Below, in pieces: positions 16,724-16,942 of a stretch of DNA of 64,000 bases (positions are counted from its first letter, which is position 1; every line of letters starts with the position of its first letter). This stretch comes from a virus (Duplodnaviria; Heunggongvirae; Uroviricota; Caudoviricetes). The stretch lies in the IMG/VR virus record IMGVR_UViG_2700989507_000006; one strand, given 5' to 3'. The translations under genes and the position numbers were made by a program. The notes beneath the pieces were generated by a model that was not told where the DNA came from, ran no database searches, and saw only the letters and a program-made list of their open reading frames with translations.

Positions 16724-16751
16724 TGAAAAAAACGCCCACCCGAAGATGGGC
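16724..16751 (-). terminator. strong intrinsic terminator
   Basis: On minus strand GCCCAUC-UUCG-GGUGGGC (7-bp stem, UUCG tetraloop) followed by UUUUUUU. Confidence 0.55.
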
Positions 16752-16912
16752 AAACTGGAAGCTCGTAACGCACTTCGGAGTTGCCACTTAGGCGCATGGT
16801 CAACCTGGCAACTCGGTGGTTTGTCTGGGAGGACTAGGCCCAGCCATGCTTACCGCCGCGCCTGTCGCGGCTAACAGCTAAATCGCTCTATAAATCACGA
16901 TTCATTGAGGCT

Positions 16913-16942
16913 ATATTACACTAATAAATTTATTAGAGCAAT
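16913..16942 (-). promoter_or_regulatory. sigma70-type promoter overlapped by bipartite palindromic C1 operator (ban-operon promoter candidate)
   Basis: Minus strand TTGCTC-17 nt-TAATAT; perfect operator ATTGCTCTAATAAATTT (16926-16942) overlapping an inverted 15/17 copy (16915-16931); dmt stop codon lies inside the spacer. Confidence 0.55.

Follow-up and report, generated by a model that had tools for sequence, protein, structure and literature searches.

What becomes of a transcript that leaves a repressor-controlled promoter and meets a strong terminator before it has reached any gene? The question is raised by a locus in a stretch of Caudoviricetes DNA (64 kb, hereafter the window, by which we mean the whole stretch that was analysed) belonging to a P1-like phage-plasmid. 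Around the leader discussed here, sequence identity is 98.4% to phage P1 (AF234172) and 95.5% to P7. The locus is the control region of the P1 ban operon, with dmt ahead of it and tRNA-Asn behind. The operator, promoter, leader, terminator, dmt, tRNAs, and ban all lie on the minus strand (Table 1), and the only tRNAs that ARAGORN calls in the window are the three listed there.

The control region had initially been described, from the letters alone, as a perfect 17-bp operator, bipartite and palindromic, that overlaps a near-consensus promoter with the dmt stop codon in its spacer. Most of this description holds. When the window was scanned with the 17-bp asymmetric C1 operator consensus (ATTGCTCTAATAAATTT), 10 C1-type sites were found at up to three mismatches, against 0.3 expected by chance. 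One of these, Op72a, matches the consensus perfectly over the promoter and aligns to the AF234172 feature “monovalent C1-controlled operator Obana”. Its inverted partner, Op72b, overlaps it by 6 bp, lies across the promoter where dmt ends, and is a component of the divalent operator Obanab in the P1 record; the operator core, CTAATAAATTTATTAG, is a perfect palindrome. On the minus strand, the promoter hexamers and their 17-nt spacing are present as well, and the spacer opens with the dmt stop codon, TAA (16935..16933). “Near-consensus” is, however, too strong a term, because the hexamers match the consensus at three of six and four of six positions (7 of 12 in total) and because the promoter was not reported by the σ70 promoter scan. 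Transcription from P1ban probably starts near position 16906.

The preliminary description suggested a comparison with the P1 ban-operon operator, and this comparison leads to the very same site. Specifically, Op72ab and P1ban of the window align base for base with features annotated in AF234172, which lists Obanab (the former Op72ab), a “sigma 70 promoter P1ban”, and a predicted P2ban; in the P7 record, the operator is given as controlling the tRNAs and ban. Going by the annotation of the P1 record, P1ban would be repressed by C1, modulated by Bof, and would initiate transcription in vivo. The control region is therefore known already, and the operator, promoter, and terminator add nothing new to P1 biology.

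Table 1. Coordinates of features of the ban-operon control region and its surroundings in the window
Feature	Position	Strand	Details
dmt	19197..16933	minus	
C1 operator Op72a (Obana)	16942..16926	minus	0 mismatches to 17-bp consensus ATTGCTCTAATAAATTT
C1 operator Op72b (Obanb)	16915..16931	plus	inverted copy ATTACACTAATAAATTT, 2 mismatches
Promoter P1ban	16913..16941	minus	−35 TTGCTC 16941..16936; 17-nt spacer; −10 TAATAT 16918..16913
Small 5′ leader hairpin	16880..16903	minus	AUCGUGA...GCGAUUU; −5.4 kcal/mol, z = −2.3
Conserved structured element (type A)	16755..16889	minus	covariance model R1, 91.4 bits, E = 4e-30
Closing helix of type A (P1-type)	16879..16874 with 16766..16760	minus	
Hairpin S1 of type A	16871..16855	minus	
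Pseudoknot of type A	16849..16844 with 16799..16794	minus	5′ strand GCAUGG; 3′ strand CCAUGC in S3 loop
Hairpin S2 of type A	16843..16825	minus	CU-rich loop
Hairpin S3 of type A	16814..16778	minus	9 bp
Intrinsic terminator	16726..16751	minus	7-bp stem, UUCG loop, G, seven U
Spacer, terminator to tRNA-Asn	16262..16724/16725	minus	463 nt; MFE −177 kcal/mol, z = −3.2
tRNA-Asn	16261..16186	minus	ARAGORN
tRNA-Thr	16183..16108	minus	ARAGORN
Third tRNA	14479..14404	minus	ARAGORN
ban	14124..12754	minus	

Downstream of the promoter, a UUCG-tetraloop hairpin followed by seven U had been taken for a strong terminator, at which transcripts would either stop, as an RNA of about 150 nt, or be carried through to the tRNAs and ban. 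The hairpin (GCCCAUC-UUCG-GGUGGGC at 16751..16734, of seven to eight pairs including one U-G pair, with its U-tract at 16732..16726) folds at −12.8 kcal/mol (z = −3.3) and is the only strong terminator-like site on the minus strand within 16050-17050. It is kept in P1, P7, D6, and the divergent plasmid MINF_7C p4, in the last of which two stem positions have changed (U-G to C-G and G-C to G-U) and the hairpin still pairs. By its fold energy and its conservation in relatives, this is a good intrinsic terminator, and it does stand between P1ban and the tRNAs and ban, as the choice between a short RNA and read-through presupposes. The length of the short RNA has to be revised, as the terminated transcript would measure ~175-180 nt from a start near 16906. 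Transcripts that read through would cross the 463-nt spacer before reaching tRNA-Asn and tRNA-Thr, and the promoter scan found no promoter-like site between the terminator and tRNA-Asn.

Within this spacer, an imperfect hairpin of ~19 bp (CAACAGGUAAGGGCGCUGG...UCAGCGUCCUUUCCUGUUG) may serve as an RNase III-type site. In addition, an exact 15-mer, CACAACAGGTAAGGG, occurs three times on the minus strand (16545..16531, 16106..16092, and 15891..15877; 0.08 expected), and a long hairpin starts with each of the first two copies, if not with all three, and has the 3′ arm CC(C/U)UU(A/U)CC(U/G)GUUG(U/C)G. The one that follows tRNA-Thr encloses a T-arm-like GGGTTCGAATCCC. These hairpins look like repeated framing or processing helices around the RNA modules of the ban operon, and they recall the closing helix of the lambdoid element described below. 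Further away, Rfam matches the sok antitoxin RNA, the C4 antisense RNA, and the a1/b1 targets at 33366-33540, 37363-37448, and 37517-37569 (minus strand), which is expected for a P1-like immunity region.

The preliminary description named the parts on either side of the leader correctly. What it missed is that the leader between them is a conserved, covarying structured RNA and not a neutral spacer, which makes a specific terminator-handling mechanism plausible. The leader begins with a small 5′ hairpin that is identical in P1 and P7. This is followed by the element that we call type A, comprising three hairpins (S1 to S3), a pseudoknot, and a closing helix, to which the covariance model R1 has a single match in the window. 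In the 6-bp pseudoknot, the junction between S1 and S2 (GYAUGG) pairs with the loop of S3 (CCAURC). The closing helix reads GUUGUGG...CCACAAC in lambdoid phages and AGCUGU...ACGAGCU in P1. Hairpin S2 is variable, with a loop that is always pyrimidine-rich (UCCUUCC, UCCUCC) and resembles an anti-Shine-Dalgarno sequence. In the window, the terminator begins eight bases past the closing helix region of the element.

The fold is supported by covariation. Among 17 diverse copies aligned with MAFFT, 93.9% of cells pair, and 11 pairs carry double changes compared with 4.1 upon shuffling (0 of 500), while control alignments with slid partners are only 34-50% paired. With 63 distinct sequences aligned to R1, an alignment that is fitted to the model and hence leans towards it, 95.7% of cells pair, and 13 pairs show double changes versus 4.5 (0 of 500). 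Six of the covarying pairs lie in S3 and one in the pseudoknot, where C-G in P1 is replaced by U-A in P7; S1 varies little. Between P1 and P7, moreover, the S2 hairpin has been swapped with its stem and CU-rich loop kept. Together with the compensatory change in the pseudoknot, this swap indicates that the element is under selection within P1-like plasmids. Conserved sequence is concentrated in the junctions and loops (GGCGGUAAG, CAGGUUGACCAU), whereas the helices covary, and such a pattern in an alignment is typical of an RNA recognised by a macromolecule. A protein-coding origin can be dismissed, given that copies differ in length by 1-2 nt (130 to 135 nt), that changes are compensatory, and that only short, unsupported open reading frames overlap the element.

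Where else does this element occur? In a BLAST search of phage genomes, positions 16870..16776 of the window match many lambdoid phages (mEp460, Evi, cdtI, Stx2c phages, 2H10, Ayreon, and Salmonella F1055) at 74-79% identity, with the matches stopping before the terminator. A two-block pattern search returned more than 120 viral contigs among the matches listed, all but three of them true copies, and R1 found 97 matches in 97 contigs, one in each. A second copy in the rightward operon, considered by analogy with putR, is ruled out by the single copy in each of these 97 contigs and in the 64-kb window. A looser pattern applied to one genome per species identified copies in Escherichia, Shigella, Citrobacter, Serratia symbiotica, Trabulsiella, Erwinia tracheiphila, and Izhakiella, which places the type-A element in prophages of at least seven genera of Enterobacterales. 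The version found in prophage Qin is present in 4,315 of 5,426 complete Escherichia coli genomes (~80%), at 8,970 places and in up to eight copies each, and the P1 leader in 469-504 PLSDB plasmid records, which are P1-like. All eight of the Qin-version matches that we sampled lie where no feature is annotated. Nor is the element mentioned in a review of phage small RNAs from 2025, a survey of those in prophages from 2026, or a preprint on the P1vir transcriptome; an earlier description elsewhere is possible. Judged by these comparisons, the leader element is a widespread and unannotated structured RNA family.

The P1 record does contain a hint of this relationship. AF234172 annotates a “dicF-like region” at 68791-68892 of the record, roughly 16818..16717 of the window, which takes in only S3, the linker, and the terminator, and it assigns neither structure nor function. 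The true homology starts ~50 nt further 5′. It is with a segment of ~115-130 nt directly upstream of dicF in prophage Qin (positions 344-473 of the Qin locus, L003; 145.9 bits to R1), not with dicF. As the alignments have it, therefore, the “dicF-like” label is mistaken, the resemblance being to what precedes dicF. The Qin dicBF untranslated region, which gives the DicF precursor, and the P1 leader have the same order of element, short linker, and hairpin terminator; they differ in that P1 lacks the DicF sequence and has the terminator hairpin directly after the element. A DicF homologue in P1 is ruled out, as the Rfam DicF model (RF00039) is silent in window positions 16000-17100 at E values up to 10, whereas Qin dicF scores 76.7 bits in the same kind of scan. 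On the leader as a whole, Rfam 15, with its riboswitches, ribozymes, tRNA/tmRNA-like RNAs, and STnc100, gave nothing at gathering score and, at E values up to 10, only weak matches far short of the gathering score of the family concerned. A tRNA- or tmRNA-like gene is also ruled out, since ARAGORN calls none at the element in the window or in eight lambdoid loci.

The surroundings of the element are informative. A detailed reading of five lambdoid loci (those of Qin, mEp460, cdtI, F1055, and a prophage of Erwinia tracheiphila) places the element within the early-left operon, where it comes after the repressor gene and shares its strand. A hairpin with a U-tract follows 3′ of the element, within ~10-60 nt, in 38 of 38 distinct downstream sequence classes. 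The downstream module may be DicF, a DicF-like variant of other sequence, or, as in P1, a bare terminator, and the linker between element and terminator ranges from 8 nt to ~60 nt. In cdtI, for example, the order is PL (TTGACA-16-CATAAT, an 11 of 12 consensus match), ~275 nt without a credible open reading frame, the element, a hairpin with a U-run, and the first gene. This hairpin and a second one after it were read by eye, and a simple terminator scan reports neither. If they do terminate, it follows that no gene of the PL operon would be expressed without read-through.

In the subfamily formed by F1055, Erwinia, and cdtI, the terminator hairpin also carries the Shine-Dalgarno sequence and start codon of a conserved small open reading frame (...LFTQQKRASPRDGLITQSTR...), the coding sequence of which crosses the U-tract (L006 ~3140-3300, L149 ~4700-4860, and L005 3086-3286). 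Termination and translation of the LFTQQKRASPRDGLITQSTR peptide may be coupled. Just upstream of the boxA-like motif described below, in F1055 (L006 ~2890-2985) and Erwinia (L149 ~4430-4525), two pieces resemble the 3′ half of a tRNA, with a T-arm bearing a UUCAAUU loop and an acceptor strand. ARAGORN calls no tRNA in these pieces; a similar stretch is annotated as tRNA-Arg in phage SPN9TCW.

The element also appears to belong to a set of modules. A second structured element, which we call type B and which contains the motifs GGGUAAGG and GGGAGGCACCC, stands at the type-A position in ST64B (L151 1379-1516) and D6 (L129 ~1195-1300), where it is closed by the same kind of helix as type A; in Qin (L003 547-687), it comes just after dicF and before dicB. 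Rfam STnc100 is matched weakly and below threshold by the copies of ST64B and Qin (34-35 bits) and not at all by the D6 leader copy. Types A and B look like exchangeable cassettes. In D6, the P1 terminator and the ~460-nt spacer are kept (the spacer at 92% conservation) and the leader upstream of the terminator differs, lacking the type-A element, which implies modular exchange. The P1-like MINF_7C plasmid 4 (L158 300-620) combines a type-A element having a Qin-type S2 with a D6-type upstream hairpin, and it has a 10-nt deletion in the junction between S3 and the closing helix. As far as sequence can tell, this mosaic is evidence of ongoing module shuffling.

How, then, might these operons pass the terminators that stand ahead of their genes? 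The put RNAs of HK022 (putL and putR) are cis-acting processive antiterminators, and their suppression of termination is blocked by mutations in the zinc-binding domain of the RNA polymerase β′ subunit. Like type A, put is a conserved folded RNA of phages without N, downstream of a repressor-controlled early promoter and before terminators, and HK639 has a single put in its left operon, as with the single-copy type-A element. The two differ in architecture, put having two stem-loops in ~70 nt and type A three hairpins, a pseudoknot, and a closing helix in ~115-130 nt. Membership of type A in the put family is ruled out by a covariance model, R2, built from seven put sequences (two stem-loops, with conserved GGAUGA...CAAUG): R2 recovers HK022 putL (95 bits) and putR (48.7 bits) and is silent in the window and the type-A loci at E values up to 10, while R1 is silent in HK022. 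Short words common to put and type A (GCGCGGCGG, ACCAUGCG), which occur in a different order, are probably due to chance. An impression by eye that put follows PL directly in the cdtI and F1055 leaders was likewise unsupported by R2.

The same holds for a stretch conserved after PL in F1055 (L006 2150-2230), ST64B (L151 1020-1100), and the Erwinia tracheiphila prophage (L149 4050-4120). This stretch (CAGCGAACAGGCAGGACGCC...GGAUGAUUCGC) shows compensatory changes in one hairpin and is put-like by eye, but the put model finds no match in it.

Eight neighbouring open reading frames (from cdtI, F1055, mEp460, and ST64B) contain no N-like Pfam domain, although small arginine-rich proteins can escape Pfam. 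Going by this result and the lack of a put match, the lambdoid operons appear to be without known antitermination devices. A boxA-like motif, UGCUCUYWY, does occur 2-3 nt upstream of the closing helix in the copies from cdtI, F1055, Citrobacter, Erwinia, Izhakiella, and Trabulsiella. It is absent in P1, which has UAUAGAGCGAUUU at that place; unlike a λ-type nut site (boxA, boxB, and N), the P1 leader thus has no boxA upstream of the RNA structure.

Our tentative proposal is that the type-A element is a leader RNA that works in cis and controls read-through at the terminator next to it. According to this proposal, P1ban would fire when the C1 repressor leaves Op72ab, and transcripts running on from dmt would enter the same leader stretch. 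The first ~150 nt would fold into the small 5′ hairpin, S1-S3, the 6-bp pseudoknot, and the closing helix, with the strong terminator following eight bases on. The folded element would then act in cis, either on the polymerase as it transcribes or on the terminator hairpin as it emerges, and set the share of transcripts that pass the terminator to the tRNAs, tciABC, and ban, much as put of HK022 or the EAR element of Bacillus does; transcripts that stop would yield the ~175-180-nt RNA. The parts themselves exist, in that the element is conserved, structured, single-copy, and always accompanied by a downstream terminator. An effect of the element on termination, and the direction of that effect, are inferred.

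We favour cis control mainly for two reasons. First, the layout of promoter, element, terminator, and genes recurs in unrelated backbones that appear to be without known antitermination devices, and it does so while the terminator and small-RNA modules differ between backbones. Second, conservation is distributed over the element as in RNAs to which a macromolecule binds specifically. The boxA-like motif of the lambdoid copies, the order of parts in cdtI, and the signs of selection between P1 and P7 also speak for it. In addition, operator-constitutive bac mutations at Op72 reportedly switch on ban, 2.7 kb downstream (D'Ari in 1975, Lurz in 1987, and Heinzel in 1989); if so, P1ban transcripts do cross the terminator.

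Several points speak against the cis model. Processive antiterminators such as put need no directly adjoining terminator, and the strict adjacency seen here would be just as natural for an RNA that owes its 3′ end to the terminator. The boxA-like motif is missing from P1, as noted above, and no conserved alternative pairing was found between the element and the varied terminators. Only one strong terminator separates Pban from ban, so that enough Ban may come from a few percent of passive leakage. Finally, the conserved post-PL stretch could be the real antiterminator of F1055, ST64B, and the Erwinia tracheiphila prophage.

The alternative that survives best takes the RNA itself as the product, and we regard it as possible, if on balance unlikely. 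The locus would be a C1-repressed non-coding RNA gene, the terminated RNA of ~175-180 nt, or a stable module of ~115 nt cut from it, acting in trans as a regulator, decoy, or protein-binding RNA, with ban and the tRNAs fed by incidental leakage. In the lambdoids, the module would form the 5′ domain of a precursor from which RNase E cuts DicF-type small RNAs, and DicF is reported to be released from such a precursor by RNase E (PMC5069750). Bacterial RNA genes are usually laid out as a promoter, a structured RNA, and a Rho-independent terminator, stable processed RNAs typically have their 5′ and 3′ ends held together by a closing helix, and a terminator or small-RNA module is always found 3′ of the element; to this may be added the anti-Shine-Dalgarno-like loop of S2 and the fact that the ban operon is otherwise rich in RNA genes. 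However, P1 offers almost no single-stranded seed between element and terminator (8 nt plus an 11-nt junction), no target is known, and what is conserved is structure and junctions rather than a seed. Moreover, an RNA gene leaves the early-operon terminators ahead of genes unexplained.

That the element is a riboswitch-type attenuator, sensing a metabolite, an ion, a protein, or temperature to decide whether the adjacent terminator forms and thereby tying early-operon expression to the state of the host, strikes us as improbable. Its multi-helix junction, with a pseudoknot and invariant unpaired bases immediately ahead of a terminator, does have the usual anatomy of an aptamer and its expression platform. 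However, the terminators vary between lineages while the element stays constant, the linker varies from 8 nt to ~60 nt, no conserved antiterminator pairing was found, and no Rfam riboswitch family matches at E values up to 10. It seems hardly likely, lastly, that the hairpin does no more than end the uhr-hrdC-dmt operon and damp Pban, with the leader a functionless recombination relic from lambdoids. The hairpin does follow the end of dmt by 182 nt, no other terminator intervening, and D6 does keep the terminator and downstream spacer behind a different leader. But the pairing of the element is maintained through compensatory changes among P1, P7, and MINF_7C p4, the element is present in 469-504 P1-like plasmid records, and where type A is missing at this position, another structured element closed by a similar helix is in place.

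Returning to cis control of read-through, two further systems offer a comparison. EAR, an RNA of Bacillales, is a pseudoknotted element of ~120 nt that lies within an operon and helps polymerase past the terminators further on. EAR comes from a different phylum, and no similarity to it was detected, the P1 leader matching no Rfam family. The λ PR′-6S RNA-tR′ arrangement and StxS of Stx phages, as described in PMC7547250, also have a promoter that runs into a terminator and makes a short RNA unless the polymerase is terminator-resistant. Those promoters are constitutive, and resistance is conferred by the Q protein at a DNA site, whereas P1ban is repressed in lysogens and has no known protein factor. 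A wider proposal, which we hold to be doubtful, is that type A, alongside put and EAR, represents a third and so far unrecognised class of phage RNA that acts in cis to render the RNA polymerase of E. coli resistant to intrinsic terminators. It would be common to P1-like plasmid prophages and N-less lambdoid phages. In most E. coli it would stand unnoticed beside dicF, and read-through of the DicF terminator in the dicB operon would thereby be explained.

Altogether, the novelty of this locus resides in the leader between a known promoter and a known terminator, namely, a covarying structured RNA family without a database description, which adjoins DicF, among the oldest known small RNAs, and sits in the classic phage P1. 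Should the element control termination, it would account for the way in which transcription of the P1 ban operon and of N-less lambdoid early operons gets past the terminators ahead of their genes, and it would be a new RNA acting on RNA polymerase. If it is instead a stable trans-acting RNA, it would be a new phage-encoded riboregulator that is switched on by induction. In both cases, the “dicF-like” annotation of P1 is corrected.
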